Positions 2,650-23,457 of a stretch of DNA of 64,000 nt are shown here, in pieces (position 1 is the stretch's first letter; each line of letters opens with the position of its first letter). The position numbers were made by a program, and so were the translations under genes. The notes under the pieces are model-generated. The model had not been told where the DNA came from. It searched no databases and worked only from the letters and a program-made list of their open reading frames with translations. Location: the IMG/VR virus record IMGVR_UViG_3300043465_002420; one strand, written 5' to 3'. Source of the DNA: a virus.

Positions 2650-3219
2650 ATGAGTACATATGAAAAAGATGGAAAGTTGATGGCAAAGTTCAATTCTTCA
2701 CGATCTGATGCTTTTGATAACAAGGGCAAGCAGTTAGCGATGAAATTTTTTAAAATGCTTGGTGGTGAGTCTTACATTAACGATGTAGACGAAAATAATG
2801 AGCATGACTACACCAAGCCAGACATTCGTGTTTTCTTTCCATTACAAAATAAAACGATCTATGTAGAAGCTGAAGTGAAGTCTGAGAAGAATTGGTCATT
2901 TATAGAAAGTGGGATTGATATACCTATTAGAAAACTTAAGTATGCAGAGAAGCATACAAAAGACGGATTTTTCTTTATGGTAAAAAATGATGAGTCTGAA
3001 GTTTTGCTTATACCGATGAAATATCTTCTGATGGCATCCAATGATTGTGGTAAAGAATTTTTGGGTATGGGTATTATTATGACATCAAGTGGTTTTGTGA
3101 TGCCAGATCATGAATGCCATCGTGTGAGAAAATTATGTAATACTGTAAACAGAAGAGGAGTTGAAGATTTTGTAAGGATTCCAGTAAGGCATGTCTACAG
3201 GTATTATAATCCATTCTAG
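2650..3219 (+). CDS. PD-(D/E)XK-like nuclease
   Basis: PDIRVFF...IYVEAEVK motif; likely start ATG 2650 after TATAAT and AAAGG (track start 2596). Confidence 0.55.
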   Translation: MSTYEKDGKLMAKFNSSRSDAFDNKGKQLAMKFFKMLGGESYINDVDENNEHDYTKPDIRVFFPLQNKTIYVEAEVKSEKNWSFIESGIDIPIRKLKYAEKHTKDGFFFMVKNDESEVLLIPMKYLLMASNDCGKEFLGMGIIMTSSGFVMPDHECHRVRKLCNTVNRRGVEDFVRIPVRHVYRYYNPF

Positions 3220-3226
3220 GAAAAGA

Positions 3227-3382
3227 TTACACTTTGAATTCTTTATATGCTTTTCTTTTAGCTTTTAAGAGTTTTGCGATATTGGTATTAATTGGGTTAT
3301 AGTTTCCATGTGTTTTAAGGTTTAGAGCAATTTGGATGACTTTTTCTTTATTTTGTTGTTCTGTAATATTTGATTCATTCAT
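3227..3382 (-). CDS. 51-aa solo copy of the helicase-associated-like repeat (possible remnant)
   Basis: MNESNITEQQNKEKVIQIALNLKTHGNYNP...LLKAKRKAYKEF aligns with repeats of 3476-5872. Confidence 0.45.
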   Translation of the reverse strand: MNESNITEQQNKEKVIQIALNLKTHGNYNPINTNIAKLLKAKRKAYKEFKV

Positions 3383-5872: not shown

Positions 5873-5920
5873 GGTTAGGTTTACGATTATTATAAGTTTG
5901 GATAAGATCTTCGGGCAAGT

Positions 5921-6889
5921 TTAATTAAAAATCAAATTATTCAAAAATTTATCAGTAGCGATATCCCAACTATATTGTTCAGCATGTTTTCTGCATTCTT
6001 GAACATTTAAATTAGAAAATGCATTCAAGATAGCTGTATCTAATATTTCATCACAGAATACTGTTTTTTCATCTTGTAGGTCTAAAGCCCCATTAATTGG
6101 GTAAGCAGCTACAGGTAGTCCGCAAGATAGGGCTTCAAGCATAACAAGACCATAGGTATCTGTTTTAGAGGGGAACACAAATACATCTGCATTATGATAT
6201 GCTTGGATTAGTTCATCTCCAATTTTTTTGCCTAAGAAATAAACATCTTTATATTTTTGTTTGTAATAAGGAAGAAGAGGCCCATCACCTACCACGATTT
6301 TTTGTATAGGAAGAGTAGATTGACAGAATGCATCTAGGTTTTTTTCTTTTGATACTCTGCCGACATATAGTGCAGTATTGTTATTGGTTGGATTGCTTTT
6401 ACATTTAAAGAAATCAAGGTTTACTCCTTTTGGAGATACTTTCATATTGTTATGATTTAGCCAAGATGTTTTATTTATCAAGTTATTAGTGCAGCAAAGT
6501 ACTTTGGATGATTTGCTATGAAACCATTTAAAATAAGTTCTTGTGATGAATAGTGGTATACTGGTGTAGGACTTTATATATTCTGGGAACATAGTAAGGT
6601 AAGATGTGGTGAATTTGATATCATTTTTCAAGCAGAAATTTCTTGTAGCTAGTCCTAGAGTGCCTTCTGTAAAGATATGTACAGCGAAGTTACCAGTGAA
6701 TAGGTCTTTATCAAATTTAACATTATAAGCGAGTTTAACATCATTGGAGAAAGGGCAGTTAAATGATTTGAATTCATGGCTTGACAAGAGGCATGATTCT
6801 TTGATGTTAGCTTGATAGTTGCTTATGGTGGTAGCAACTCCATTGACATCTGGGTAGGAGGTATCAGATACTAGTATAATTTTCTTCAT
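5921..6889 (-). CDS. GT4 family glycosyltransferase
   Basis: DTSYPDVNGVATT, YVGRVSKEKNL, FPSKTDTYGLVMLEALSCGLPV; start MKKIILVSD at 6889. Confidence 0.9.
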   Translation of the reverse strand: MKKIILVSDTSYPDVNGVATTISNYQANIKESCLLSSHEFKSFNCPFSNDVKLAYNVKFDKDLFTGNFAVHIFTEGTLGLATRNFCLKNDIKFTTSYLTMFPEYIKSYTSIPLFITRTYFKWFHSKSSKVLCCTNNLINKTSWLNHNNMKVSPKGVNLDFFKCKSNPTNNNTALYVGRVSKEKNLDAFCQSTLPIQKIVVGDGPLLPYYKQKYKDVYFLGKKIGDELIQAYHNADVFVFPSKTDTYGLVMLEALSCGLPVAAYPINGALDLQDEKTVFCDEILDTAILNAFSNLNVQECRKHAEQYSWDIATDKFLNNLIFN

Positions 6890-7541
6890 ATTTTTCCAAT
6901 GTAATAGTGCCATTATTGACTAACAAGAATGTTGGTGTTTTTTCAGTCCAGCATCCTGAGTTGAAGTAAGTTCCGTTATTTGCTTCTGGGCAATGTGTAT
7001 GTCCAACGCAGATCAAGTCACATTTCATTTTATCTTTATATTTAATTGCTTTGGCTTTAACTTTTTCGATACATTTCAAAAAAGTTTTGCTACTCATTTT
7101 AGCTAATTTGGCCCAATAGAAATCGTTATCAAGTTTTTGGAGGAAGTGGTATAGGTAATCTGCTATTGCTACTGTTATTGGGTAGTCGGTTATAAAGTCA
7201 TCAAATTTATCGCCATGGGTACATATGATTTTTTTGTCACCTGATACAAAAATATATTCTTCATGTACATTAGATCCTAGTAGGTGAGATACTATTTCGC
7301 TAGGGCCATCATGATTACCATGAATCCAGATTACATCAATTAGAGTGGATAGGTGTCTTAGTTTTGCTAGTATTTTGAAGTGGCTACTTTTGAGTCTTCT
7401 GAAATCCCAAGAGTCGAATACATCACCATTGAGTATAAGTTTTTTGGTAGTTGGTAGATTATCAAGAAAGTGGTTTAGATCTTTAGCTTGGCAATTATCG
7501 CTACCTAGGTGAATATCAGATATAATGATTGCATCTGTCAT
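6864..7541 (-). CDS. calcineurin-like metallophosphoesterase, UDP-2,3-diacylglucosamine hydrolase (LpxH)-like
   Basis: SDIHLG, NGDVFD, GNHD, THGD, GHTH motifs. Confidence 0.85.
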   Translation of the reverse strand: MTDAIIISDIHLGSDNCQAKDLNHFLDNLPTTKKLILNGDVFDSWDFRRLKSSHFKILAKLRHLSTLIDVIWIHGNHDGPSEIVSHLLGSNVHEEYIFVSGDKKIICTHGDKFDDFITDYPITVAIADYLYHFLQKLDNDFYWAKLAKMSSKTFLKCIEKVKAKAIKYKDKMKCDLICVGHTHCPEANNGTYFNSGCWTEKTPTFLLVNNGTITLEKYEENYTSI

Positions 7542-7621
7542 ACAATATTTACATTAGTTAAATTAGAATATGTTATGTTGTTGAGTATTATTCAAAGTAT
7601 CTTCACAATTGTTGGTAGTTA

Positions 7622-8032
7622 TTATTTGGTGATTTCCGATACTGTTCCTGTTAGTTTGATATTTTGGATTGGATGCCAATCAGTAATATCATTGCTCATA
7701 GCTGGTTTACCTCCAGCGAGTGTATTAACTGCTATAGTTACATGAGGTATTTTGTTATTGCTTTTGAATCCATTTACTTTAACGGCAATAGCCATATTAC
7801 TTATTCCTATTTCCGATGCTATTAGATTAACTTCTTGGTTGATAAGAGAATCTTCTGGTGGGTTAAGTTTTCCCAAATTGATAGTCATATGGTGAGCAAA
7901 AGTCTTCCAATTTTCTGGTATATATTCTTTAAGTTCATCCAATAATTTTTCATGGCTTTGTTGGTTTAAGACAATGGCAGAGTAGGATACTTTTTTATCT
8001 TCTCTGTTTTCAATCCAGTTTTTGAAGTTCAT
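7622..8032 (-). CDS. 2H phosphoesterase (cyclic phosphodiesterase, tRNA-ligase CPDase-like) with MNFKNW leader
   Basis: Two HxT motifs: HHMTI and PHVTI. Confidence 0.75.
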   Translation of the reverse strand: MNFKNWIENREDKKVSYSAIVLNQQSHEKLLDELKEYIPENWKTFAHHMTINLGKLNPPEDSLINQEVNLIASEIGISNMAIAVKVNGFKSNNKIPHVTIAVNTLAGGKPAMSNDITDWHPIQNIKLTGTVSEITK

Positions 8033-8036
8033 TGGG

Positions 8037-8129
8037 TTACTTTGCAGCTATTGTTTGAGTTAAGTATTTATCGATTAGTTCTTGTATTTCTGGTGTTTTC
8101 TTTGTGTAATATTTTACCAGTTTAAATAT
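8037..8129 (-). pseudogene. orphan C-terminal tail of an ART-solenoid paralog (IFKLVKYYTKKTPEIQELIDKYLTQTIAAK*)
   Basis: Near-identical to the tails of 8770, 10171 and 15428; in frame directly after the TAA of 8130-8726. Confidence 0.8.
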
Positions 8130-8726
8130 TTAAACAGTAACTGAGTACCCTATCGATAGACAAAAATCATTAAATTTTGAATAATTTTTGTATTTTATGA
8201 AATCTTTATGTTCAAATTTTGTTCTTCCACGAACATGTTTTTTGCTATTGATATCAACTGGTTTTTTATATTGAATGCCAAGATAATCACATAAAATTTC
8301 GAGTTGATCTTCTATTCTTATTTTAAGTTCAACTCTTGTATGGTTTTGAATTTTCTGATATCTTTGAATCAAATTTTCCATAGCAGAATTAACATCAAAA
8401 ACTTCTCCATGATTAATTTGAATGCACAAATGACTATTTAAAACAGAAATTGGATTCCTATAAATTAGAACTATGGGCAATTTTGAAATAGGTTCATAGT
8501 TACAATATTCCATAGCAGTGTAATTACTTTCTCCTTTTGCTATTTTGTATAATGGAATTCCATCATATTCAATCATTCCATTTGGTCCGTAATTCCAAAT
8601 TGAAGTAACTGGATTATAATGTAGCATTTCATGGCAACAAGGAAAGCCGCAATATGTCAAATAATTAGCGGTAAATGAAGTTCCTCCACCGTAATTTCCA
8701 CAAAAAATATGTGTTAAATTATTCAT
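8130..8726 (-). CDS. sulfotransferase-like P-loop protein
   Basis: GNYGGGTSF 5'-PSB-like loop, CHE, IYRNPISVLNS; related to 40992-41717. Confidence 0.6.
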   Translation of the reverse strand: MNNLTHIFCGNYGGGTSFTANYLTYCGFPCCHEMLHYNPVTSIWNYGPNGMIEYDGIPLYKIAKGESNYTAMEYCNYEPISKLPIVLIYRNPISVLNSHLCIQINHGEVFDVNSAMENLIQRYQKIQNHTRVELKIRIEDQLEILCDYLGIQYKKPVDINSKKHVRGRTKFEHKDFIKYKNYSKFNDFCLSIGYSVTV

Positions 8727-8733
8727 AATATTC

Positions 8734-8766
8734 CTATAAAATTTTTATAATTTGTTTAAAGTTCAT
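8734..8766 (-). pseudogene. N-terminal stub MNFKQIIKIL* of a lost paralog
   Basis: ATGAACTTTAAACAA follows the AAK-stop junction exactly as the intact paralogs do. Confidence 0.65.
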
Positions 8767-8769
8767 GAT

Positions 8770-10167
8770 TTACTTTGCAGCTTGTGTTTGAGGTAAGTAT
8801 TTATTGATTAGCTCTTGTATTTCTGGTGTATTTCCGTGGTATGTTGTTATTAGGTTTGCCATTTCTTTTTTATCGGTTGTATAGTGAAATAGATAATAAG
8901 CAATGAGAGGAGATATTTTTAATTTAGATACAATCCATTCTATCATTGCTTTGTCATATCTTTCAAACACATAACGAATTAAGTCGATAATGTTGCTTTC
9001 GTAGAATTTTGATTCTTTAGCAATAATTAATTCTATTGTTTTTTTTGCATAAATTGGTTTAATATCATGAATAAGATCTTTAATATTTTTATAAGATATT
9101 TTGGGTTTTTTATTTATTATAAGTTTTTTAATTGGTTCTGGATAGGTTGAATATAAAGTCAAATGTCTGACATCATTATCAGAAAGTTCTGGTTTATAAT
9201 TTACAATTAATTGTGCTATATGATCATTATGACTACCTGCATATCCAAGAAGTTTCAATACATTATCATCAGAAAGGTTTGTTTTTTTCTTTAGGATTAG
9301 TTCTGCAATTTTAACTTTACCTTCGTTTGTTGTATAAAAGGCCAAATTTTTAATATCATTATCAGAAAGATTTGTTTTTTTATTGATGATTAGTTCTGCC
9401 ATTTTGTCTTTATCTGTTGTATTTTTTAGAACTCCTTCAATATTTCTATGAGATTGAAGAATTGCATCCAGTTGTTGGTCAGAAATTTTATTTGGGTTGT
9501 ATTTTTCTCTTTTGACAATTTGTCCTTTTTTATTTTTATCGATGATATTATTGTCGATAGAGTATAAGACTTTTAAGGCATCTTTTGCGAATACCACACC
9601 TTGAGTTGATTCTTGAGGGTGGATTGTGCCAGTTCCATGATCTACGAATCCATCGACACCACATTTTCTAAGATTAGAGTTCCATTCTGATGGTTTGTCA
9701 TTTGCGATTGCTTTTGTTACAAGCCATAGCATAGAATAATTGCTACGAAGATTATATTCATCTTTTTTTATTTTATCTTCAGCCTCGTAAACTTTTTTGA
9801 GCGAGAAAACATTACCACTATAAAGTATATCCATACCTTTTTGTTCTTCATCACTAGGATTCATATGTAATATTTTTTGTGGTCTTGTGAATTCGCAGAC
9901 ATTGAGATAAGGTTGATCTCCTGCGAATGGAACATCCATTTCATTTTCAATGACATAATTTAATGGATAAAAATAAATTCCGATTGGTGTTTTATATTCG
10001 CTTTTTGGATTGATCCCAACTTTATCGATTGCGGTATAAGTTACGACAAGGTTTTCTGGATTGGGATGAGTTTTTTGAATATGTTGTAGTGCGAGAAGGG
10101 GATCACGAAATTCTTGATCCTTTATCATTATCTTTTCAGTTAGTATTAGCCATTGTTTAAATTTCAT
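8770..10167 (-). CDS. type-B ART-like domain plus helical repeats, capsid-leader protein
   Basis: TPIGIYFYP and GFVDHGTGTIHPQESTQGVVF; ~29-aa repeats; ends QAAK; paralog of 13527. Confidence 0.6.
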   Translation of the reverse strand: MKFKQWLILTEKIMIKDQEFRDPLLALQHIQKTHPNPENLVVTYTAIDKVGINPKSEYKTPIGIYFYPLNYVIENEMDVPFAGDQPYLNVCEFTRPQKILHMNPSDEEQKGMDILYSGNVFSLKKVYEAEDKIKKDEYNLRSNYSMLWLVTKAIANDKPSEWNSNLRKCGVDGFVDHGTGTIHPQESTQGVVFAKDALKVLYSIDNNIIDKNKKGQIVKREKYNPNKISDQQLDAILQSHRNIEGVLKNTTDKDKMAELIINKKTNLSDNDIKNLAFYTTNEGKVKIAELILKKKTNLSDDNVLKLLGYAGSHNDHIAQLIVNYKPELSDNDVRHLTLYSTYPEPIKKLIINKKPKISYKNIKDLIHDIKPIYAKKTIELIIAKESKFYESNIIDLIRYVFERYDKAMIEWIVSKLKISPLIAYYLFHYTTDKKEMANLITTYHGNTPEIQELINKYLPQTQAAK

Positions 10168-10170
10168 AGT

Positions 10171-11646
10171 TTACTTTGCAGCTATTGTTTGAGTTAGGTA
10201 TTGATTGATTACTTGTTGAATTTTTGGTGTTTTATTTGTGTGGTATTTATTTAGTATTTGTGCCATTTTTGGTTGGTCTTTTTCATAATCAAGTAAATTT
10301 ATAATGTTCTGATCAGAAAGTTTGTTTATATTATCTGTTCCTAATAGTTTTGCTATTTGTTCTTTATCTATTGTATGTCGAAGTAAAGTAATAACATCGG
10401 CATCAGAAATTTCTGTTTTGTGTTTTATAATTAGTTCTGCTATTTTATCTTTGTTTATTGAATTTATAAGCAGATCATAAACACTTTGATAAGAAAGTTC
10501 TAATTTTTTATTTATAATTGCTTCTGCTATTTTATCTTTATCGGATGCACTATAAAGTAAAAGTTGGATTATAGTGCTAGAAAAGTTTGTTTTTTTGTTT
10601 ATAATTAGTTTTGCTATTTTATCTTTGTCTGTTGTAGTTTGTAACAAATCAACAACATTTGTATCAGAAAGTTTTGTTTTGTATTTTACAATTAGTTCTG
10701 CTATTTCGTTTTGTTTAGTTGAATTTTTAAGAAAAACTTTAACATTAGTATCAGAAAGTTTTGTTTTGTACTTTATGATTACTTCTGCCATTTTGTCTTT
10801 ATCTGTTGACTTTTTAATCAAAAGACTGACATCAAAATCAGAAAGTTCGTTTAGATTTGATCCTAAATATTTTGCTACTGCTTCTAAATTTTTAGAATTT
10901 AACAATTTATTAAAAATGCTTTTACCGATTTCGTAATTGTAACCAAATGAAAATTTTTCTCTGTTTGGTGATTTATAAATACTTTTCATACTTGCCTTAT
11001 CGGTGGAGGTAATCCAGCCAATATTACTCTTTAGATCTTTCATTTTTTGTTCATCGTTTGCATCTGCTTCTGCAACCGCATAACCCAACATTGTTATTGT
11101 TTCATCTTTAACTGGTTGATATTTAACTAAGCAGTAGCCATCATTTGCTCCATAATAGATAATTCCTTTAATTGATTTTTCTATCCAATCATTTTGGTCG
11201 TAGAATTTTTTTGCTAAAATTGCCGAATAGGTTTCTTTTTCTTGTAGTTCATCGTAGTGTTTTAAGTTGTCGCCTTTTTGACCACCAAATTCCCCTTTAG
11301 TTACTTTGTTTAGTAGTCCAAATTTCTTTAATTGACTGCTTATTTTGTAATCATTGCCATGGATTTTTTTTGCTTCAGATAATTCAAATATGAGGTACTT
11401 GTCAAGGTCTGTTACTTTAAATTTGACTAATGTTTCGCCATACATTTTCATATAATCGGTAAATTGACTTTCTATTTTATAAGTAGTATAAAGACCACAA
11501 CCATACCAACAACCTTTACCTGCTCCTGATTTGAAATCAGATGTGAGTATATTTGATACAGAGTCAACATTTGTCCTATGATAGACAGTTGCAGTCTTAT
11601 TTTGAGCATAAATTTCTTCAGATATTAGCCATTCTTTAAAGTTCAT
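10171..11646 (-). CDS. type-A PARP-like (H-Y) ADP-ribosyltransferase domain plus helical repeats
   Basis: VYHRT...ILTSDF...YGCGLYTT resembles the PARP HGT...GF...FG.GIY pattern; ends TIAAK. Confidence 0.65.
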   Translation of the reverse strand: MNFKEWLISEEIYAQNKTATVYHRTNVDSVSNILTSDFKSGAGKGCWYGCGLYTTYKIESQFTDYMKMYGETLVKFKVTDLDKYLIFELSEAKKIHGNDYKISSQLKKFGLLNKVTKGEFGGQKGDNLKHYDELQEKETYSAILAKKFYDQNDWIEKSIKGIIYYGANDGYCLVKYQPVKDETITMLGYAVAEADANDEQKMKDLKSNIGWITSTDKASMKSIYKSPNREKFSFGYNYEIGKSIFNKLLNSKNLEAVAKYLGSNLNELSDFDVSLLIKKSTDKDKMAEVIIKYKTKLSDTNVKVFLKNSTKQNEIAELIVKYKTKLSDTNVVDLLQTTTDKDKIAKLIINKKTNFSSTIIQLLLYSASDKDKIAEAIINKKLELSYQSVYDLLINSINKDKIAELIIKHKTEISDADVITLLRHTIDKEQIAKLLGTDNINKLSDQNIINLLDYEKDQPKMAQILNKYHTNKTPKIQQVINQYLTQTIAAK

Positions 11647-11650
11647 AAGG

Positions 11651-11658
11651 TATTTATG
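11651..11658 (-). promoter_or_regulatory. T4-type late promoter CATAAATA
   Basis: Ends 4 nt upstream of ATG 11646; the same octamer is at 37403-37410. Confidence 0.55.
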
Positions 11659-11744
11659 TGAGTTTAATCGGGAAATAAGTCTTGTGTGTAATAAAAATTT
11701 TGTTATATTTTAAATTAAATTAATTGTGTTATTCCTAACAGGAA

Positions 11745-12683
11745 ATGAACATGGAACCAAGAATTATCGGTTATTGCAGGGTAAGTGGCGATGGGCAACA
11801 TGGAAATGATCAAGATGGCGTACCCCGACAACATCGAGTCATAGAGTCTTGGGCAAAAAAGAACAAACAACGAATTAGCGAATGGATTGAAGATCTTGGT
11901 GTAAGTGGAACTTTAGCGTTTGCTGATCGACCAGAATTATCGAAATTACTTGCAAACATTTATCCTGCTGGAATTTTCGTTGTGGAAAAAGCTGATCGTC
12001 TTGCAAGGGATCTCATTGAAGGCGAATTAATCATTCGGCATTTTAGTAGAGCAGGTTGGAAAGTCATTTCTGCTGAAACTGGTGAAGACTTAGCAAATTC
12101 AGAATCACCAACTGCAATTCTAATGCGACAGCTTACAGGGGCAATAGCGGAATTTGACAGAAGGAACACTGTTGCAAGATTGCGAGTTTCGAGGGAAAGA
12201 AAACGAAAAGAAACGGGCAAATGCGAAGGACGAAAAGCCTTTAACAATCAAAGTGTTCTTATGCGAATCAGAAAACTTATGCGAAAGAAAAATGGCACTA
12301 AGCCCAGTTTGCAATGGGTTGCTAATCAATTAAATGCAGAAGGAATGATAACAGCTAGTGGGAAAATGTGGACTACTGGAATGGTTTACCACTTCGTTCA
12401 TGGTGCTGGCTCTAAAGTTAAAAGAGAATCTGGAATATTGTCGCCATCTACACAAAACAAGGAAATTAAAATGGCAAAGAAACTTGTGGTTAAAAAAATA
12501 CAAGTAAATAACAAATATACTTACATATGTGATAAACCAGTAAGGATAGGAAGTGAGGTTAAATTACCAACTCCTCATTGGATGCGTGAATTTCAAGATG
12601 ACACATGGATTGGTAAGGTAACTGATTTAAAGAGTGATTACGATGGTGTGTGTGAAAGTGTAATTGAAGTATTAAAAAAATAG
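11745..12683 (+). CDS. serine recombinase (resolvase/invertase family) with C-terminal fused ~70-aa ORF
   Basis: GYCRVS catalytic Ser, DLGVSG, DRPEL, EKADRLARD; helical DNA-binding region; internal AAGGA-ATG (MAKKLVV). Confidence 0.9.
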   Translation: MNMEPRIIGYCRVSGDGQHGNDQDGVPRQHRVIESWAKKNKQRISEWIEDLGVSGTLAFADRPELSKLLANIYPAGIFVVEKADRLARDLIEGELIIRHFSRAGWKVISAETGEDLANSESPTAILMRQLTGAIAEFDRRNTVARLRVSRERKRKETGKCEGRKAFNNQSVLMRIRKLMRKKNGTKPSLQWVANQLNAEGMITASGKMWTTGMVYHFVHGAGSKVKRESGILSPSTQNKEIKMAKKLVVKKIQVNNKYTYICDKPVRIGSEVKLPTPHWMREFQDDTWIGKVTDLKSDYDGVCESVIEVLKK

Positions 12684-12725
12684 GATTCATTTAATAGATA
12701 TAATAACTTTCAATGGAGATTTAAA

Positions 12726-13016
12726 ATGAAGTCTTTAATTTTGTTTTTGGTTATGTTTTTGGGTATTAGTAGTGTTGCTGAAGCACAGTTCATTGTTGTT
12801 TATCCACAAGTTAGATATTACAACAATTATGGTTACAATTACAACAACTACAATTACAATAACTATGGTTATAGAAACTATGGTTACAACAACTACAACA
12901 ACTACAATTATGGTTACAACAATAACTGGAATAGGTATGTGACACCAAGTGGATACATGCCATTTAACAATCCATATTTTCAGATGGCTACACAGGGAAT
13001 TGGTAGAGGTTGGTAG
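12726..13016 (+). CDS. secreted Tyr/Asn-rich low-complexity (prion-like) protein
   Basis: GGAG SD; signal peptide ending AEA-Q; YNNYNY repeats; C-terminal NNPYFQMATQGI. Confidence 0.75.
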   Translation: MKSLILFLVMFLGISSVAEAQFIVVYPQVRYYNNYGYNYNNYNYNNYGYRNYGYNNYNNYNYGYNNNWNRYVTPSGYMPFNNPYFQMATQGIGRGW

Positions 13017-13057
13017 TTATTGTTTAAAATATATTTTTCAAAAAATTAAGGTACAAA

Positions 13058-13591
13058 ATGAAATCTTTTTATGAATATGTAAAAGTGCGTGATATTAATG
13101 AAGATTACTATGATTCTAGAAAACCCGTTGAAGGTTATGTTGATGCTAATGATTTAGTAGGACAAAGACTCTGGTTTCACACTAATAGAACTCATAAAAT
13201 TCAGGGTTTAAATGGCATGATTGGTATTTATCAAACTACACCAAGCGGTAGAAAAAAAGGATTGGCTGGCAAATATACAAATGAAGTAAGATTGTCGGAA
13301 CCTATTTTTTTTCAAACATCGGAATCTGGTGCCAAACAAATTATGGAAAAAGATAAAAGAACTTTAATTGCTGGTGTTTCTGGAAAAGTTGTTCCTACTA
13401 ATAATGATACAAGCGGTATGGTAAAGATTACTTATAATCCATTCAATGAAGATGCACCATGGTTTCATGCCATTGATGATTCAGAAAATAAAGAAATTGT
13501 GTCTGCTTCTGAAGTTTATTTCAATGCTACTGAAAATGGTCAGTGGGATATATGGGCAAAGAATCCTGTTCATGCTTTAAAAACTCTTTAA
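13058..13591 (+). CDS. hypothetical capsid-leader protein
   Basis: MKSFYEYVKVRDINE leader. Confidence 0.7.
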   Translation: MKSFYEYVKVRDINEDYYDSRKPVEGYVDANDLVGQRLWFHTNRTHKIQGLNGMIGIYQTTPSGRKKGLAGKYTNEVRLSEPIFFQTSESGAKQIMEKDKRTLIAGVSGKVVPTNNDTSGMVKITYNPFNEDAPWFHAIDDSENKEIVSASEVYFNATENGQWDIWAKNPVHALKTL

Positions 13592-14978
13592 TTTTTTCAT
13601 TTTTATTTTTATGATATTTTTCTATAATTTGTATTATTTTTGGTTTATCTTTTTCTGGAACTTTTTCATGTAAAAGTGTGATAGAAAACCAATTAAGTCT
13701 ACTTATATTATCTTCTCCTAATTTTTTTGCTATTTTGTCTTTATCAATTGCATAAGTTAGAATATTGATCATATTTTTATAAGTCATTTCTGGTAATCTT
13801 TCTATAAGAAGATTTGCCATCTTGTCTTTATCAGTTGCATATTGAAGAAAATTTTCGACATTATTATCAGTAAGTTTTGTTTTATAATCAATAATCAATT
13901 CTATGATTTTATCTTTATCGTTTACGAGTGAGATCATATATGAAACATTACTATCTGTAAATTCTGGGGTTTTTTGAATAATCATTTTTGCCATTTTGTC
14001 TTTATCTTTTGCATGATAAATCAAATCTTCAACATCGACATGAGAAATATATGTTTTATATTTTATGATTAGATCTGCCATTTTTTCTTTTTCTGTTGTA
14101 TTTTTAAACAAGTTTGTAAGATCTAAAGATCTACGAGATTGCAATAAGCCTATAATTTGTTCATCTGACATCTTATTGCTATTATATTTATCTGTTTTTT
14201 TGAAGTATGTTGAGTTGTCAATTGAGTGAAGTAGTTTCAAGGCACTGGTAGCAAAAACAACGCATTGGGTTGGTTCGCTTGGATGAATTGTTCCAGTTCC
14301 ATGATCTACAAATCCATCTATTCCACATTTTCTAAGATTGGCGTTCCATTGTGTGATTTTTCTATTTGCAAGTATTCTTGTTACGATCCACAATTTGGAG
14401 TAATTGCTACGAAGTTGGTATGCTGCTCCTTGCAATTCATCTTTTACATAATCATAATAAGTTTTGGCATCAATATACTTTTTATAAAGATCATCTTCTT
14501 TTTCTTGATCATATTGAAGATTATTCAGTTTGGTTTTTTTGTGATCTGATAATTTTTGAGCTTTATTGAACATGTCTACTGATGGATTAATTTCTTTAAT
14601 AGCTTGATCTACTTGTTCTTTTGGAAAAACATTGAGTAGTTCCATTCCATCTTGTTTAGACACATCGGGATTCATATGTAATATTTTTTGTGGTCTTGTG
14701 AATTCGCAGACATTAATATAAGGTTGATTTGCAGCGAATGGAACATTCATTTTCTTTTCAATTACATAATCTATAGGATAGAGATAAATGCCAAGTGGTG
14801 TTTCATATTTGCTTTCTGGATTAAGACCAACTTTATCGATTTTGGTAAAAGTTACGGCTAGTGTGTTGGGGAAAGGGTGATTTTTTCGAATATATTGTAG
14901 TGCAATAAGAGGCTCACGGAATTCTTGATCCTTTATCATTATCTTTTCTGTCAGTAGTAGCCATTCTTTAAAGTTCAT
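13527..14978 (-). CDS. type-B ART-like domain plus helical repeats (native tail replaced)
   Basis: TPLGIYLYP, HPSEPTQCVVF; tail diverges after IKEFLK and overlaps 13058-13591. Confidence 0.6.
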   Translation of the reverse strand: MNFKEWLLLTEKIMIKDQEFREPLIALQYIRKNHPFPNTLAVTFTKIDKVGLNPESKYETPLGIYLYPIDYVIEKKMNVPFAANQPYINVCEFTRPQKILHMNPDVSKQDGMELLNVFPKEQVDQAIKEINPSVDMFNKAQKLSDHKKTKLNNLQYDQEKEDDLYKKYIDAKTYYDYVKDELQGAAYQLRSNYSKLWIVTRILANRKITQWNANLRKCGIDGFVDHGTGTIHPSEPTQCVVFATSALKLLHSIDNSTYFKKTDKYNSNKMSDEQIIGLLQSRRSLDLTNLFKNTTEKEKMADLIIKYKTYISHVDVEDLIYHAKDKDKMAKMIIQKTPEFTDSNVSYMISLVNDKDKIIELIIDYKTKLTDNNVENFLQYATDKDKMANLLIERLPEMTYKNMINILTYAIDKDKIAKKLGEDNISRLNWFSITLLHEKVPEKDKPKIIQIIEKYHKNKNEKIKEFLKHEQDSLPIYPTDHFQ

Positions 14979-15424
14979 TGGGTTATCTTTTTTGAAAAAA
15001 CACTTAATATAAATTCTTTTATGTATGGAACAAAATCATAATTATTTATTTCATCTTTTGTAATAAATTTATAATTTGAATTTTCATAATCTAATTTTAT
15101 ATTTTGACTTTCTAATTCTCCATAAAAATAATAAATCTCTCCAGCATCAACAGTCATTATTTTATGATCAAAAGAAACATTATTTGGTTTTAATCCTATT
15201 TCTTCAAGGCACTCTCTTATTATGGCTTCTTTTGGGTTTTCTCCTTCTTCAATTCCGCCACCTACTAAGCTCCATTTGTTTGGCATCCAAGGAGCAGTAG
15301 ATCCTCTTTTTAGTATTAAGACTTTATTATCATTTAAAAGTCCTATTACAGATGTTTTAAATTTAGAATGATCTGTATCAGTTGATGTCTCTTCTTTCAG
15401 TATTAGCCATTCTTTAAAGTTCAT
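14975..15424 (-). CDS. NUDIX hydrolase with capsid leader
   Basis: GGGIEEGENPKEAIIRECLEEIGL Nudix box; MNFKEWLILKEE. Confidence 0.9.
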   Translation of the reverse strand: MNFKEWLILKEETSTDTDHSKFKTSVIGLLNDNKVLILKRGSTAPWMPNKWSLVGGGIEEGENPKEAIIRECLEEIGLKPNNVSFDHKIMTVDAGEIYYFYGELESQNIKLDYENSNYKFITKDEINNYDFVPYIKEFILSVFSKKITQ

Positions 15425-15427
15425 GGT

Positions 15428-16993
15428 TTACTTTGCAGCTATTGCTTGAGGTTCAAGGTATTTATCGATTAGCTCTTGAATTTCTGATGTTTTATTTGTG
15501 TGATATTTGTTTATGATTTGTGCGATTTTTGGTTTGTCGGTTACAGCAACAAGCAAACGATAAACACCATCATCAGAAAGTTCTGGTTCCTTTTTCATAA
15601 TATATTCTGCTATTTTTTCTTGGTCTTTTGCATATCGAATCAAATCACGAACACCATTTTCAATATCTATTTTTGATAGTTTGTTTATGATTAATTCTAT
15701 TATTTTGTCTTTGTCGTTTGCTTTAAAAATAAAATAATAAACATTATCCTCAGAAAGCTCTGGTTTGTATTTTATGATTATTTTTAACATCTCGTCTTTG
15801 TCATTTACTCTTGCAATCAAATCACGAATAAGAAGATTAGAAAGTTTGCTTATATTGTCTTTTTCTTTTTGCAATATTTCTGCTATTTTTTCTTTATTGT
15901 TTGCCTTAAGAAGCAAATAATAAATATTATCATCAGAAAGTTCTGGTTTCTTTTCAATAATTAGTTCTGCTATTTTGTCTATGTTATCTGCATAAGAAAG
16001 CAAATGAAAAACATTATGATCAGAAAGTTCTGGTTTCTTTTCAATAATTAATTTTGCTATTATATCTTTTTCCTTTGCATTCATAATTGAAGTGCTGACA
16101 TCTTTGTCAGAAAGTTTTGTTTTATACTTTATAATTACTTCTATCATTTTTTCTTTATCGGTTGCCTTATAAAGTAAAACGCCAACATTATCTTGAGAAA
16201 GTTGGTTTAGATTTGATCCTAATTTTTTTGCTGTGTATTCTACATTTTTAGATTTTAACAATTGATTCATAATATGGACATTGTCATCTTCGCCAAATGA
16301 AAATTTTTCTCTATTAGATATTGGTGATTTATAAATACTTTTAATACTTGCCTTATCGGTGGAAATAATCCAATTTTTTGATTTTGGATTTTTAAGTTCT
16401 TCCATCTTTTTCATATCATCATATTTTGCAACTGCATAGGCCAACATGGTTATTGTTCCATCTTGGACTGGTTCATATTTAACTAAACAATAACCATCAT
16501 TTGCTCCATAATAAATAATTCCTTTTACCGAATTTTCTATCCATTTGTTTTTTTCGTAGAATTTTACCGCCAAAACCGATGAAAAGCTTTCTTTTTCTTG
16601 TTGTTCATCGTATTCTTTCAACTTACTTTCATCTACTTTGTTTAATACTCCTAATTTCTTTAATTGATCGCTTATTTTGTAATCCTTGCCATGTATTTGT
16701 TTTGCCACAGATAATTGAAATATAAGATATTTATCGAGATCTGTTACTTTAAATTTGACTACTGCTTTACCATAAGTTTCCATGTAATTAGTAAATTGGC
16801 TTTCTATTGCAAAAGTAGTGTAAAAACCACAACCATACATACAACCTGAACCAACTTTAAAATCTTTTGTGAGTATGCTTGATACAGCTTGAACGCTTTT
16901 TTCTTCATCGCAACCAGGACAAGTTCTATGATAGACAGTTGCAGTCTTATTGGGGAAGATTTCTTCAGATATTAGCCATTCTTTAAAGTTCAT
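15428..16993 (-). CDS. type-A PARP-like ART plus helical repeats
   Basis: VYHRT, YGCGFYTT, GIIYYGANDGYCLVKY; ends AIAAK. Confidence 0.65.
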   Translation of the reverse strand: MNFKEWLISEEIFPNKTATVYHRTCPGCDEEKSVQAVSSILTKDFKVGSGCMYGCGFYTTFAIESQFTNYMETYGKAVVKFKVTDLDKYLIFQLSVAKQIHGKDYKISDQLKKLGVLNKVDESKLKEYDEQQEKESFSSVLAVKFYEKNKWIENSVKGIIYYGANDGYCLVKYEPVQDGTITMLAYAVAKYDDMKKMEELKNPKSKNWIISTDKASIKSIYKSPISNREKFSFGEDDNVHIMNQLLKSKNVEYTAKKLGSNLNQLSQDNVGVLLYKATDKEKMIEVIIKYKTKLSDKDVSTSIMNAKEKDIIAKLIIEKKPELSDHNVFHLLSYADNIDKIAELIIEKKPELSDDNIYYLLLKANNKEKIAEILQKEKDNISKLSNLLIRDLIARVNDKDEMLKIIIKYKPELSEDNVYYFIFKANDKDKIIELIINKLSKIDIENGVRDLIRYAKDQEKIAEYIMKKEPELSDDGVYRLLVAVTDKPKIAQIINKYHTNKTSEIQELIDKYLEPQAIAAK

Positions 16994-17010
16994 AGTTTAC
17001 AACCTAGTAA

Positions 17011-18516
17011 TTATGTAAATGATCCAGTTGATAGAACTTTTTTACCTAAATTTAATTTATATCCGCTGCTGTATTTATCAATGAATTCTTGAATTTTTGG
17101 AGTTTTCTTTGTGTGGTATTTGTTTATTATTTGTGCTATTTTGTCTTTATCGTTTGCATCATCATGAAATAAATCAATAACACTTTGATCATCAAGCTTG
17201 CTTATGTTGTCTTCTTTTTCTTGTAATCGTTCTGCTATTTTTTCTTTATCGTTTGCAAAATTAAGCAAATATTGAACATCGAAATAAGAAAGTTCTGGTT
17301 TATTTCCAATAATTAGTTCTGCTATTTTGTCTTTATCTGTTGCTTTACGAAGCAACAATTCAACATGTTTACCAGAAAGTTTTGATTTCTTTTCAATAAT
17401 TAGTTCTGCTATTTTATCTTGTTTGTCGGTTGCAAACTGAATCAAGCTATAAATATTCATATTAGAAAGTTCTGGTTTATTTTTAACAATTAATTCTGCT
17501 ATTTTGTCTTTGTTGGTTGCAGTACGAAGCAAATTTTCAACATTCTCATCAGTAAGTTCTGTTTTATATTTTATAATTAGTTCTGCTATTTTGTCTTTGT
17601 CGGTTGCATAATGAAGCAAATGAAAAACATTCCAATCGGTAAGTTCTGTTTTATATTTTGCAATCACTTCTGCCATTTTGTCTTTATCTTCTGCATGATG
17701 AAGCAAACCAGAAATATTCTCATCAGAAAATTTGTCTAGATATAATCCTAATTTTTTTGCTGTTTTTTCTAAGTTTTTAGATGTTAAAAAAATATTTTTG
17801 ACATTTTCGATTTCGCTATAATCTCCAAATGCAAACTTTTCTTTATTTTCGATTGGAGATTTATAAACATTTTTAATGGGTGTACCTAATATACCAACTG
17901 ATTTAATCCAACCAATATTACTTTTCAGTTCTTCCATCTTTTTCATATCATCATATTTTGCGACTGCATAGCCCAACATGGTTATTGTTTTATCTTGAAC
18001 TGTTGGATATTTAACTAAACAATAACCATCTCTTGATCCATAATAGATAATTCCTTTTACCGACTTTTCTATCCAATTATTTTGTTCATAGAATTCATAT
18101 GCCAAAACTGATGAAAATTTTTCTTTTTCTTGTCGTTTATCGTAATATTCTAATTTACTTTCATTTACATTTGGTTTGTTTAGTAGTCCTAATTTTTTAA
18201 ATTGACTGCTAATTTTATAATCATTGCCATGTATTTGTTTTGCCTCAGACAATTGAAATATGAGGTATTTATCGAGGTCTGTTACTTTAAATTTGACTAA
18301 TGCTTCGCCATACATTTCCATATAATCGACAAATTGGCTTTCTATTTTATAAGTAGTATAAAGACCACAACCATAAGAGCAACCTGCACCTGCACCTGCT
18401 TTAAAATCAGATGTGAGTATGCCTGATACATCTTTGAGACTTCTTGTTCTATGATAGACTGTTGCGGTCTTATTGGGGAATATTTCTTCAGATATTAACC
18501 AATGTTTAAAGTTCAT
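17011..18516 (-). CDS. type-A PARP-like ART plus helical repeats (tail altered)
   Basis: Same motifs; tail KYSSGYKL... replaces KYLxQxIAAK. Confidence 0.65.
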   Translation of the reverse strand: MNFKHWLISEEIFPNKTATVYHRTRSLKDVSGILTSDFKAGAGAGCSYGCGLYTTYKIESQFVDYMEMYGEALVKFKVTDLDKYLIFQLSEAKQIHGNDYKISSQFKKLGLLNKPNVNESKLEYYDKRQEKEKFSSVLAYEFYEQNNWIEKSVKGIIYYGSRDGYCLVKYPTVQDKTITMLGYAVAKYDDMKKMEELKSNIGWIKSVGILGTPIKNVYKSPIENKEKFAFGDYSEIENVKNIFLTSKNLEKTAKKLGLYLDKFSDENISGLLHHAEDKDKMAEVIAKYKTELTDWNVFHLLHYATDKDKIAELIIKYKTELTDENVENLLRTATNKDKIAELIVKNKPELSNMNIYSLIQFATDKQDKIAELIIEKKSKLSGKHVELLLRKATDKDKIAELIIGNKPELSYFDVQYLLNFANDKEKIAERLQEKEDNISKLDDQSVIDLFHDDANDKDKIAQIINKYHTKKTPKIQEFIDKYSSGYKLNLGKKVLSTGSFT

Positions 18517-18519
18517 AGT

Positions 18520-19092
18520 TTATTTTGCAGCCATTGGAATTTGTGGGTATTGTTTTTTAAACCAATCCATATATTTTTGATTAACAATAACTTTTTTATT
18601 TACATCTCCAACTCCAATAACATGAGCTTGTACATCACCAGAATCATTTACACTTAGGTTTGGTATAAACATTGCCATCATTTTCATAGTTTCTGGTGGT
18701 GGCACTATAAATCCTCTTTTTTCTGCCATGCTTGCTATACTATCACTTACAGCACCCCAAACAGGTTTGTTGAGATTATCAACAAGACTTAATCCTTTTA
18801 GAATAGCTCTAGTACTTCCTGCAACTCCTGTTAATTTTACTAAACCTGAATTTTGAAATCTAACACAAACAAATCCTGCTGCTGGATCATGTTCAGATTC
18901 TGGTGGTATTCCAAAAAAAGTCCATGATCTTGATCTTCCAAGGAATGTGTTCATATCCCATGCTTTTCCTGTTGATTTAAGATAAGACTCAACAAAAATA
19001 TTGTAAACCCATTCTGGCACAATGTTCTTATCACTTAATGTAAAACTTTGTGGTTCTGTATTTTCTAATAACCATTCAATAAATGTAATCAT
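18520..19092 (-). CDS. capsid-leader protein, possible GNAT-like fold; ends AAK
   Basis: MITFIEWLLE; GFVCVRF...VKLTGVAG...PVWGAVS...EKRGF pattern. Confidence 0.5.
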   Translation of the reverse strand: MITFIEWLLENTEPQSFTLSDKNIVPEWVYNIFVESYLKSTGKAWDMNTFLGRSRSWTFFGIPPESEHDPAAGFVCVRFQNSGLVKLTGVAGSTRAILKGLSLVDNLNKPVWGAVSDSIASMAEKRGFIVPPPETMKMMAMFIPNLSVNDSGDVQAHVIGVGDVNKKVIVNQKYMDWFKKQYPQIPMAAK

Positions 19093-19108
19093 ATATAATT
19101 TTTCCTAT

Positions 19109-20677
19109 TTATTTTTTAGGGGTCGGCAAACTATCAATAAAGTCTGAAACTTCTTGGCCTTTATAATTAAAGATATCTCGTGGATCATCTGTGACTACCT
19201 TCGCTGCCGCCTTAACTGCTGGTGCCACTACATCTAATGCACTTTTTGCAACACTACCACCAGAATTTTTAATTTCATCAGAACTAAATATAAATGATCG
19301 AAGGGTATAACCAGCACTAACAGCCTCCCTTCTTGCATCTTCAGCATCTTTTGGATTTAGTCCAGAATCTCCAGCAGCAGAAGATAAAGCTTTTAATTTC
19401 ACGAAAATACCATTTACAAAAGAATTGTGCTTCAATTGATATTCATTAAAACGATTCATTAATTCAGAACTATTGTAGGTTGATATAACATCTTTTAAAT
19501 CTGCTATTCGGTCTTGATCATTTCCCATTTTAAACAATAAATGCCACAAAACATCTTTCGCCTTGTCAGATTTTTCAGTTATTGCTTGTTTTAATATTTG
19601 TGCATGAAGCGTATTATCATAAAAATCTGTTTTCTTCATTGCATCTATCAAATCTGGATTTCTAATCAAATTTGATATCTTTGATGGATCAAGAGAATTT
19701 GCAGCATTCTGAAGTTTGTCTCCCAATATATCATCAGTTTCTTTTTGTGGAACCCCAACTTTTTCAGCAACTTTTCTAATATCATCACTTTCGGCTGCTG
19801 ACAATTTTCCTTGAATCATATCTGTGACTTTTTCTGTTGCTTTAGCTCCAAGTTTACCGACATAATAACCTATGATTACACCGAACAAGACTTTGCCAGT
19901 AGCTACCGGATTGTTTGCTATCATTTTCATAACACTAGAAAATAATTTGGCGATACTAGAAATTGAATTTGATATAATGCTAACTCCAGCACCAGCACCA
20001 TAACCAAGACCTTTACCTAAAAATTCTCCAACTCCTCTTGCATCTTCTTGGTACTCATTTTCCAAATAAATTTTTTGGTATAAGTTTATATCTTTATTTC
20101 TTAAGAATGAATTGAATGAGTCAAATGAATCTGCAACTACTTTAGGAGTTGCGGCTGTTGGGTTTTTACTTTTCCAATCTACCCACATTTTATCTAATTC
20201 TTCGACTGTTTTGCCAGTTAGTTTTTCCCATGCTGTATCATACATTTTGTTGGCTAAATTTGTCGCAACTCTTCTTAGTGATAAAGCGAGAATATATGCA
20301 GGAAGAGCAGCGGGTGCAGTTGCTGCAATACCAACAATCATAGCTGCTGTAACTGGTGATATCCCAACTTTGTCTGCAAATTTTTGTGACACATTTGCGA
20401 CTATTTCAATAGTTTTTAAAATCCCTGGGGTAAGAAACTTTCCAAGTTCCTCAACATCTTTGGCACCTTTGTCATATCCTTGCTTTAGACCTGTAGAAAG
20501 TCCACCTGCAAAGTTCTTAGCACCTTGAAGAATTGGTGATTTAGATGGATCGAGAAAATCCATTTCATTTAGATCAACGCAATAAGATTCTGAATAAGTA
20601 GTTTGTCCTATTTGACTTCTTAAGCTATTCCACCATTCTTGTTCTGTAATAATTCTTTGATTTGTGTAGTGTGACAT
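19109..20677 (-). CDS. Gly/Ala-rich protein with hydrophobic hairpins, putative membrane-inserting virion protein
   Basis: VSPVTAAMIVGIAAT...LRR and GKGLGYGAG segments; paralog of 44535 and 28017. Confidence 0.6.
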   Translation of the reverse strand: MSHYTNQRIITEQEWWNSLRSQIGQTTYSESYCVDLNEMDFLDPSKSPILQGAKNFAGGLSTGLKQGYDKGAKDVEELGKFLTPGILKTIEIVANVSQKFADKVGISPVTAAMIVGIAATAPAALPAYILALSLRRVATNLANKMYDTAWEKLTGKTVEELDKMWVDWKSKNPTAATPKVVADSFDSFNSFLRNKDINLYQKIYLENEYQEDARGVGEFLGKGLGYGAGAGVSIISNSISSIAKLFSSVMKMIANNPVATGKVLFGVIIGYYVGKLGAKATEKVTDMIQGKLSAAESDDIRKVAEKVGVPQKETDDILGDKLQNAANSLDPSKISNLIRNPDLIDAMKKTDFYDNTLHAQILKQAITEKSDKAKDVLWHLLFKMGNDQDRIADLKDVISTYNSSELMNRFNEYQLKHNSFVNGIFVKLKALSSAAGDSGLNPKDAEDARREAVSAGYTLRSFIFSSDEIKNSGGSVAKSALDVVAPAVKAAAKVVTDDPRDIFNYKGQEVSDFIDSLPTPKK

Positions 20678-20735
20678 AGATCCTCATATTTGTTGATAAT
20701 ATGGTATCTATGTGGTTCGATGAAGGAAATTAATG

Positions 20736-21146
20736 TTACATATGCACTAATTTTTCTATAATTTTGCTATCTTTTTCTAATAGCCATTGTAGTCCAAAAT
20801 GAATGGGTGATGGCCAATTTCCAAATTCGACCCATTTATAATCTTGAGTTTCCCAATTTAAACATGGAGTGAATTCTTCATCTATTATTCCCAAGAAATT
20901 GTGATATTTAAATACAAACCAATTCATGGTTGATAATTTGATTAGTTCGATATTTCCATTATATCCAGATTCTTCTCTTAGTTCTCTTTTTGCTGTTTCT
21001 TGTGGAATTTCATCAGGGGAAGAAAAACCTCCCCAAGTTCCCCAAGTATTTGGTTGACCAACTTGCTTAGACCTATGAGGAAGCAGTATTTTTTTTGTGT
21101 TTTTGGCCAAAATGATACATCCAGAACCTTGTTTTACAAATTGCAT
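20736..21146 (-). CDS. NUDIX hydrolase
   Basis: GG...DEIPQETAKRELREESGY Nudix box. Confidence 0.9.
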   Translation of the reverse strand: MQFVKQGSGCIILAKNTKKILLPHRSKQVGQPNTWGTWGGFSSPDEIPQETAKRELREESGYNGNIELIKLSTMNWFVFKYHNFLGIIDEEFTPCLNWETQDYKWVEFGNWPSPIHFGLQWLLEKDSKIIEKLVHM

Positions 21147-21213
21147 GTTTTTCCCAATACTGTTAAAAATAAATTACCTAAGTAACTATAGCAATTAATT
21201 TTTGATAGTAAAG

Positions 21214-23385: not shown

Positions 23386-23457
23386 AGATTTATTTACACA
23401 ACAAATAAGATAAAATCCACTAAATAATGTCATTACAAGTTAAGAGTGGGGATAATT

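Follow-up and report, generated by a model that had tools for sequence, protein, structure and literature searches.

The DNA treated here is a viral stretch of 64,000 nucleotides (nt), IMG/VR record IMGVR_UViG_3300043465_002420, which we call the window and whose positions are counted from its first letter. It has about 30% G+C with numerous ORFans and phage-type genes, and it holds an array of minus-strand genes at whose boundaries one junction sequence is repeated. From the comparison of related sequences, we consider that homologous recombination and gene conversion at this junction probably reshuffle, delete and capture genes of the array, and we give this reading a probability of about 0.62. 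The junction is a composite of the C-terminal tail of a paralog family (...KYL.Q.IAAK-stop) and an N-terminal leader tag (MNFK.W..E), and on balance it appears to be the meeting point of two conserved coding ends and not a dedicated DNA site.

In the proposed mechanism, the approximately 50-200 nt of near-identical DNA at each gene boundary would provide homology for the general recombination system of the phage. Non-allelic homologous recombination and gene conversion between the copies would keep the junction uniform, and the same exchanges would delete, duplicate and reorder genes and swap whole genes between co-infecting relatives. A gene joined in frame behind the leader would gain the tag together with coupled expression, and the outcome would be a hyperplastic locus in which putative virion cargo genes stand between flanks that are conserved.

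Copies and composition of the junction

The five paralogs of the array have two kinds of head, namely A-type (A465 at 8770-10167 and A483 at 13527-14978) and B-type (B491 at 10171-11646, B521 at 15428-16993 and B501 at 17011-18516), and a sixth member probably begins at 23385. The 27-nt junction GCTGCAAARTAAAYYATGAAYTTYAAA is found on the minus strand without mismatch at 8755-8781, 15413-15439 and 18505-18531 and with one mismatch at 10156-10182. Four copies within three mismatches compare with none expected in 100 shuffles, and the conserved repeat reported in a preliminary description of this DNA is thereby confirmed.

All gene starts in 5900-21200 were read to check the copies. The three full copies of the preliminary description were found again, extending over 10150-10182, 15407-15439 and 18499-18531 when the following codons are included. 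At 18499-18531, the tail (...MAAK) of a gene encoding 190 amino acids (aa) is followed by TAA, ACT and the MNFKHW start of B501; at 15407-15439, the B521 tail (...IAAK) is followed by TAA, ACC and the MNFKEW start of the leader-carrying cassette NUDIX149 (14975-15424); and at 10150-10182, the B491 tail (...IAAK) is followed by TAA, ACT and the MKFKQW start of A465. Both near-full copies are present as well, one at 8015-8048 with a 4-nt spacer (TAACCCAATG) and the other at 8755-8781, behind which a remnant open reading frame (ORF) of ten codons follows. The two partial copies, at 14961-14992 and 16976-17010, have an intact leader and only part of the upstream half. At the former, the end of NUDIX149 (...KKITQ-stop) overlaps the ATG of A483 (as ATGA), and AAAGATAACCCA upstream is a 1-nt-indel variant of AAAGTAACCCA. 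At the latter, B501 has the changed tail at 17011 that had been pointed out previously (...STGSFT-stop), and a 17-nt spacer in which the terminal GTAAACT is indeed retained leads to the MNFKEW start of B521; the arrangement is identical in the relatives L011 and L015.

The two halves of the junction are distributed differently. In a scan of the window, the upstream half GCTGCAAARTAA was found in the array only (five exact copies), while the leader half ATGAAYTTYAAANANTGG has 14 copies within two mismatches against 1.6 expected, 7 of them outside the interval of the preliminary description (8015-18531). Leader copies that had not been listed there lie at 11629-11646 and 23368-23385. The first belongs to the start of B491 (11629-11657), which has CATAAATACCTT upstream, with a late-promoter-like ATAAATA 4 nt before the ATG, and no AAK tail. 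The second lies inside an ORF called at 21214-23433 and has TAAATAAATCT upstream; the ATG at 23385 (MNFKHW), rather than the upstream ATG, is probably the true start of the further B-type paralog. Homologues of this ORF are split between two start calls, MTLFSEFYLICCVNKSMNFK... and MNFK....

Between the tail and the tag there are just TAA and 3-4 nt, and this stop-to-start spacer, variable in both length and sequence, is the least conserved part of the junction. Since the paralogs have a common tail, the AAK of the junction is shared mostly as plain paralogy. Sharing of the junction by unrelated proteins, which had been stressed previously, holds for the NUDIX gene (Pfam E-value 5.6e-17) and for the 2H-like phosphodiesterase gene (weak Pfam match, E-value 3e-4), but the label GNAT-like for the 190-aa protein (...MAAK) is not confirmed, as this protein gave neither a Pfam nor a PHROG match. 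The last 35 nt or so of the 190-aa gene resemble the paralog tail (QYPQIPMAAK versus QYLTQTIAAK).

Besides NUDIX149 and the 2H-like gene, which both begin with the leader, genes of the relatives that carry it include a cytidylyltransferase, several ORFans and a possible methyltransferase, and across the compared loci it was found on 14 gene-family clusters. The tag consensus is M-N-F-K-x-W-[LI]-x-x-E; of 62 leaders, 51 have an [LIVM]-x-E that ends at residue 10 or 11, and among 28 AAK tails there are 19 with [IV]-[QK]-E at a distance of 13-19 residues from the C-terminus. Codon 2 is AAC in array leaders and AAT, AAA, CAA or AGA in non-array leaders. The leader persists at deep divergence, and unrelated genes encode it with other codons; for the leader, a constraint at the peptide level is clear. 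By analogy with the capsid targeting sequence and Alt of phage T4, both peptide ends may be packaging or processing signals, or propeptides.

In the junction columns, identical residues have a codon identity of about 0.9-1.0, also where the codons are rare (AAC, AAG and GCT); over whole genes it averages 0.79, and 0.52 is expected from codon usage. The synonymous-site comparison proposed in the preliminary description is not decisive, because many other columns and the entire first 60 nt or so of the A-type genes are as conserved as the junction: third codon positions in the junction are highly conserved, but they are no outlier against the rest of the genes. Protein-level selection on the termini plus gene conversion, which had been offered there as an alternative, is no rival and is the most likely reason for the conservation of the junction.

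Array variation and rearrangement ends among relatives

The same junction is present in the related loci L004, L005-L008 and L011-L018, which come from several lake metagenomes. A DNA-pattern scan of Joint Genome Institute metagenomes found it on about ten lake contigs and nowhere else; a candidate from the metagenome scan, L022, was rejected as a chance or unrelated match. In IMG/VR, a DNA-pattern scan gave no junction copy and a protein-guided scan gave three distant loci only, all without the junction, and megablast of 8000-19100 against phage GenBank records gave no match. One window protein was also found on a 260-kb contig.

Gene number and order differ in every relative, while the flanks are conserved: B-type 739, NUDIX136, 522 and 190 stand upstream, 2H and Metallophos stand downstream, and an inner reverse-strand landmark gene is common to the loci. 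Leader genes number about 8 in the window, about 12 in L011 plus L015 and at least 18 in L018 plus L005. NUDIX149 occurs in three settings, and its upstream and downstream neighbours both change each time: they are B521 and A483 in the window, a 512-aa paralog and the cytidylyltransferase gene in L011, and the 190-aa gene and a 661-aa paralog in L018, respectively. A Mom-family gene (PF25680) on the opposite strand is found in the arrays of L005 (755-1432), L015 (4995-5561) and L018 (14772-15449) and not in the window, and the array gene after it has a short tail fossil ending in CAATAAATAAACT upstream.

When blocks were defined by an identity of 90% or more between genomes and their boundaries were collected from seven loci, 39 of 63 distinct boundaries (62%) fell within -120 to +75 nt of a leader ATG, against 8.3 expected (p<=2e-4). 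This bears out the proposal that breakpoints map to the junction region. NUDIX149 is 96% identical between the window (14958-15496) and L011, from 72 nt before its ATG to 20 nt past the next ATG, and its flanks are not orthologous between the two. A483 shows 93% identity to its copies in L004, L005 and L015, and the block starts exactly at the ATG. Breakage at random would seldom produce such clean ends in an intergenic gap of 3 nt.

Genes are also missing between direct repeats. In L013, a 468-aa paralog before the 2H gene stands between two repeats of about 120 nt that comprise tail, junction and leader. This gene is missing from the window, whose 120 nt at 7995-8114 align to both flanking repeats of L013, a signature of direct-repeat recombination. 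A 489-aa gene of L013 stands between the two copies (183-241 and 1864-1922) of a 59-nt direct repeat (...IEKYHKNKNEKIKEFLKHE...), while the window has a single copy of the repeat (13569-13627) without the 489-aa gene. Deletion through this repeat replaced the tail of A483, and the odd tail that resulted overlaps the gp82-like gene.

Remnants of a further replacement lie at the downstream end of the array. The junction copy behind the A465 tail, together with its remnant, occupies 8734-8781, and the remnant ORF (8734-8766) reads MNFKQIIKIL-stop; it is what is left of the 5' end of a paralog, in place of whose body there is now a 198-aa gene (8130-8726). The same arrangement of A465-tail junction and remnant is found in L013 and L014. 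The 198-aa gene has no leader and has its own AGGA ribosome-binding site. Around it is the skeleton of the former paralog: a 15-nt stump of the 5' end (MNFKQ...) on one side and, on the other, 82 nt of non-coding fossil from a paralog 3' tail (...TKKTPEIQELIDKYLTQTIAAK-stop, 8033-8114), which with the 4-nt-spacer junction stands directly before the 2H-like gene. At the position of this fossil, L013 has its intact 468-aa paralog.

Gene conversion among leaders is supported by a synonymous change that is private to L011 and spans non-allelic leaders, and further by the codon 2 usage of array leaders (AAC) given above. Ile8 in WLISEE leaders is ATT in all four cases of L011, one of them on the unrelated cytidylyltransferase gene, and ATA in all eight cases of four other genomes. 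The cytidylyltransferase gene has 36 identical nt in common with B-type leaders of the same genome. These two features, and the absence of the 468-aa and 489-aa genes of L013 exactly between direct repeats (about 120 nt and 59 nt), speak against an explanation by plain tandem duplication with purifying selection on the termini, in which the junction would have no role in recombination and the ends would coincide with gene boundaries only because gene-breaking recombinants are lost. It agrees with this explanation that the leader peptide is conserved over deep divergence and on unrelated genes, that synonymous conservation in the junction is unexceptional, and that the order is stable among near-identical contigs. 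Yet the intergenic target is only 3-4 nt, and dozens of rearrangement ends fall cleanly there with about 100 nt of flanking sequence retained, and we regard the explanation as improbable.

The preliminary description had also suggested an integron-like mechanism, in which the junction would be the target of a site-specific system (the serine recombinase at 11745-12683 or another phage enzyme) that moves cassettes. The recombinase belongs to a reverse-strand island on the plus strand (11745-13591), together with a 96-aa gene (12726-13016) and an L5 gp82-like gene (13058-13591). It is intact in the window (RVS motif; Pfam Resolvase E-value 2.5e-26; PHROG invertase/integrase) and also in L015-L017, where it is located at the same place, and the units bounded by the repeat are cassette-like. 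However, the recombinase of L013 is a 174-aa C-terminal piece (2820-3344) without the catalytic domain, and an unrelated 218-aa gene takes its position in L004, L005 and L018, which hold the largest arrays; junction-linked arrays are retained in all four of these loci, L013 among them. The central spacer varies in sequence and length, the block ends are scattered over about 200 nt (-120 to +75) with no single crossover point, and deletions have also used repeats other than the junction. As folded single strands, five junction copies formed no stable hairpin, and their z-scores (0.06 to 1.40) did not improve on shuffles. No meaningful inverted repeats were found in 7000-21500 and no paired crossover sites for an invertase, and Pfam scans of all genes at 2596-24678 gave Resolvase only, with no tyrosine integrase or phage-integrase domain. 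We consider this mechanism very improbable. The earlier view of the junction as a recombination hot spot thus fits homologous recombination with swapping, deletion and acquisition of genes, and its site-specific, serine-recombinase route is not supported. The 96-aa gene adjoining the recombinase is conserved in all of the window, L013, L015-L017, L004, L005 and L018.

Several points weigh against homologous recombination and gene conversion at the junction. Wherever neighbours differ, a block end has to lie in the junction, simply because the junction is conserved throughout; the boundary statistic is an association and not the crossover itself, and the boundaries are not independent of each other. 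Recombination was deduced by comparing assemblies, some of which end inside the array and which could have misjoins at repeats. L005 differs from L006/L007 by an extra 185-aa leader gene that begins about 20 nt past an ATG; this difference is situated at the end of a contig, may stem from misassembly and was not counted as proven. Some indels at the locus bypass the junction, such as that of a 216-aa Methyltransf_24 gene, which lies between the 2H-like and Metallophos genes in relatives (L013 10835-11485; L004 21104-21754) and is absent from the window (between 7541 and 7622). Rearrangement is infrequent at the strain level: among 24 contigs that were read because they have the exact window B501 protein, all save one truncated contig have mostly the same neighbours. 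The order varies among more distant relatives, as had been expected in the preliminary description, but does not change across the 23 further near-identical contigs. A role of the tag in capsid targeting is predicted by analogy. Finally, non-coding tail fossils are kept (window 8033-8114; L013 8910-9006; L004 13941-13961; L024/L029), and their retention may reflect a cis function of the DNA or RNA. At L004 13941-13961, a change of CAA to TAA ends a 667-aa paralog early (...DKYLQP-stop), so that the final 21 nt of the tail and the junction persist unchanged as non-coding DNA.

Expression signals at the junction

Of 52 junction contexts, only 2 have a motif like the Shine-Dalgarno sequence, whereas 33 of 63 non-leader genes have one. 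The sequence (N)ATAAATA is found 3-6 nt before the ATG in 13 of the 52 contexts, where the upstream gene is no tail-bearing paralog, and the heptamer ATAAATA occurs also about 33 nt upstream of most junction ATGs, encoded there by the tail codons D/N-K-Y. When placed before the ATG, ATAAATA resembles a T4 late promoter positioned for leaderless mRNA. Sigma-70 promoter-like sites in the array are not more numerous than in shuffles and none is at a junction, and terminator-like sites number 2 in 17 kb against 6 expected, with neither at a junction. As no Shine-Dalgarno motif, promoter or terminator lies between the genes, a single transcript translated by termination-reinitiation is probable, or else leaderless mRNAs at the sites with ATAAATA 4-5 nt before the ATG.

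The same motif occurs elsewhere. In the window, (N)ATAAATA stands 4-5 nt before an ATG without a Shine-Dalgarno sequence at 11647-11657 and at the starts of 36289-37395, 54542-55300 and 60739, and it precedes an ATG at many sites in L004, L005 and L011. The window has four such cases, with the motif at -11 to -14, among 76 genes, against about 0.2 expected by a rough estimate.

These observations bear on a serious rival, which partly overlaps with the recombination reading: the junction might primarily be a cis-acting expression signal for the downstream gene, recombination there being incidental. The signal might be a late promoter in the tail codons I-D/N-K-Y (ATC-RAT-AAA-TAC, containing ATAAATA) with the junction as 5' untranslated region, or a start context for termination-reinitiation or leaderless translation (TAAAYY-ATG-AAC-TTT-AAA). 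Such a signal would fit the scarcity of Shine-Dalgarno motifs and the two placements of ATAAATA described above, the second of which is found in most AAK tails. It would fit also the persistence of tail fossils before genes whose upstream paralog is gone, frameshifted or prematurely stopped, the retention of GTAAACT before the ATG even after unrelated tails, and the near fixation of the rare codons AAC, AAG and GCT. On the other hand, no positions of the junction vary more than the 2-3 nt immediately ahead of the ATG, and several tails lack ATAAATA, for example ATCAATCAATAC at 10167 and GATAAACAC in MDKHL tails. Non-array leaders keep the peptide with other codons, synonymous conservation is similar in many other parts of the genes, and the fossils would equally be expected as scars of homology-guided exchange. 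We judge a primarily cis-regulatory role to be rather unlikely, though clearly less so than plain duplication or a site-specific system.

Paralogs, neighbouring genes and known systems

The body of the paralogs consists of helical repeats of about 30 residues, and the tail ...KYHTNKTPEIQELIDKYL.Q.IAAK is common to the members; its fuller pattern is K-T-P-E-I-Q-E-L-I-D-K-Y-L-x-Q-x-I-A-A-K-stop. The B521 tail is ...DKYLEPQAIAAK, and that of A465 is ...NKYLPQTQAAK. Repeat units of about 87-90 nt (DKDKIAELII..K.ELSD.NV..LL), for example in 10200-10900, 15500-16200 and 17100-17750, are 65-75% identical to each other, and their number differs among paralogs and relatives (proteins of 379-741 aa). 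This suggests that the units offer further, internal substrates for recombination. Of 120 homologues from the databases, at 30-88% identity, nearly all have the leader; their C-termini are variable, with the AAK tail limited to the closest subfamily. In the homologue leaders, F3, K4, W6 and E10 are invariant (E10 in 46 homologues).

The AlphaFold model of a B-type protein (B491; predicted local distance difference test score, pLDDT, 89) has a disordered leader (residues 1-9), a head of 200 residues and a helical solenoid. Since a full-length Foldseek search was dominated by the helical-repeat half, the head (residues about 16-208) was modelled separately (pLDDT 88-89). It aligned to MbcT (6fkg_B) with Z 7.7 and a root-mean-square deviation of 3.9 over 138 residues, and the Foldseek matches listed for it include MbcT and, more weakly, diphtheria-toxin, PARP and ExoA catalytic domains, with a best E-value of just 0.014. 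The B-type head gave no Pfam match. MbcT is an NAD-cleaving toxin, an NAD+ phosphorylase. The models suggest, though not conclusively, a fold of the ADP-ribosyltransferase (ART) superfamily, and the heads of B491 and B501 are labelled ART/RES-like and ART-like here. In the B-type heads (10171-11646, 15428-16993, 17011-18516 and 21214-23385), H23, R24, Y53 and Q61 are invariant and S60 is nearly so. By analogy with T4 Alt, the B-type paralogs may be injected enzymes that use NAD.

The conserved downstream end of the array is the 2H-like phosphodiesterase gene (7622-8032, minus strand), whose leader reads MNFKNWIENRE. The 190-aa gene (18520-19092, minus strand), which ends in QYPQIPMAAK, is part of the conserved upstream flank.

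If homologous recombination at the junction is confirmed, linker-mediated shuffling would be extended from the non-coding promoter-early stem-loop (PeSL) to a coding linker, and a functional peptide tag, probably for capsid packaging, would double as a homology arm that recruits new genes. It would account for the way in which huge phages assemble large and fast-changing repertoires of enzymes that are putatively injected (in the present case ART-like proteins and NUDIX hydrolases, together with a 2H phosphodiesterase and a cytidylyltransferase), and MNFK.W..E behind ...AAK-TAA would become a sequence handle for candidate cargo genes in lake viromes. A stronger version, in which the junction is not a by-product but a selected device for gene capture, a homology-driven, in-frame 'integron' for injected proteins, seems to us doubtful. 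In that case, a module of tail, stop, start and tag, held invariant at each boundary, would serve these phages as a recombination platform, and a gene crossing in through the leader of about 12 codons would at once be translationally coupled and addressed to the capsid, possibly with the help of a dedicated phage recombinase and excised circular intermediates.

The closest known analogue is the PeSL-mediated modular shuffling in hyperplastic regions of T4-type phages (Arbiol et al., 2010, PMC2839356; Comeau et al., 2014, PMC4122927). There, conserved linkers of about 100 bp are substrates of the phage recombination system, and the authors drew an analogy with integrons. Both systems have a conserved sequence repeated at gene boundaries in a variable region, with insertions, deletions and replacements between relatives that are bounded by the repeat; in both, homologous recombination by the phage's own machinery would be used, and the linker would bring expression signals to a captured gene. 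The PeSL, however, is non-coding and consists of a sigma-70-like early promoter and a GC-rich stem-loop terminator, neither of which was found here. Our linker is mostly coding (C-terminal tail, stop, 3-4 nt, N-terminal tag), and exchange must therefore be in frame, and what it would transfer is a peptide tag, not a promoter. For the PeSL, minicircles have been demonstrated; the present array is known from assemblies.

The integron (IntI, attI/attC, Pc) is similar in its mostly promoterless genes of the same orientation, its repeated boundary element and its variable content between conserved flanks. It differs in that the array has no IntI and no attC-like folded site, its boundary is coding and unstructured, and its crossovers are not at a single point. 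Concerted evolution of tandem families by unequal crossing-over and gene conversion likewise gives genome-specific homogenised ends, changes of copy number and hybrid or fossil copies, but here unrelated genes (NUDIX, cytidylyltransferase, 2H and others) would be drawn in through shared ends.

For the tag, the nearest comparison is with the internal proteins of T4, for which a capsid targeting sequence was described (Mullaney and Black, 1996, as cited in PMC9026906; for Alt, Ali et al., 2017, PMC5694885). For IPIII, capsid targeting requires no more than the first ten residues, which gp21 removes; from Alt, six residues are lost at the N-terminus (at ITE) and 63 at the C-terminus (at LTE) (PMC9026906, PMC5694885). 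An N-terminal tag of about ten residues that ends in [L/I]-x-E is, in both cases, found on otherwise unrelated proteins; Alt is an ADP-ribosyltransferase with N-terminal (ITE-6) and C-terminal (LTE-619) propeptides, and genes for internal proteins vary among related phages. The array differs from T4 in its tag sequence, MNFK.W..E, which is known here from genes, in the larger number of tagged genes, and in their tandem arrangement with 3-nt spacing, which is far larger here.

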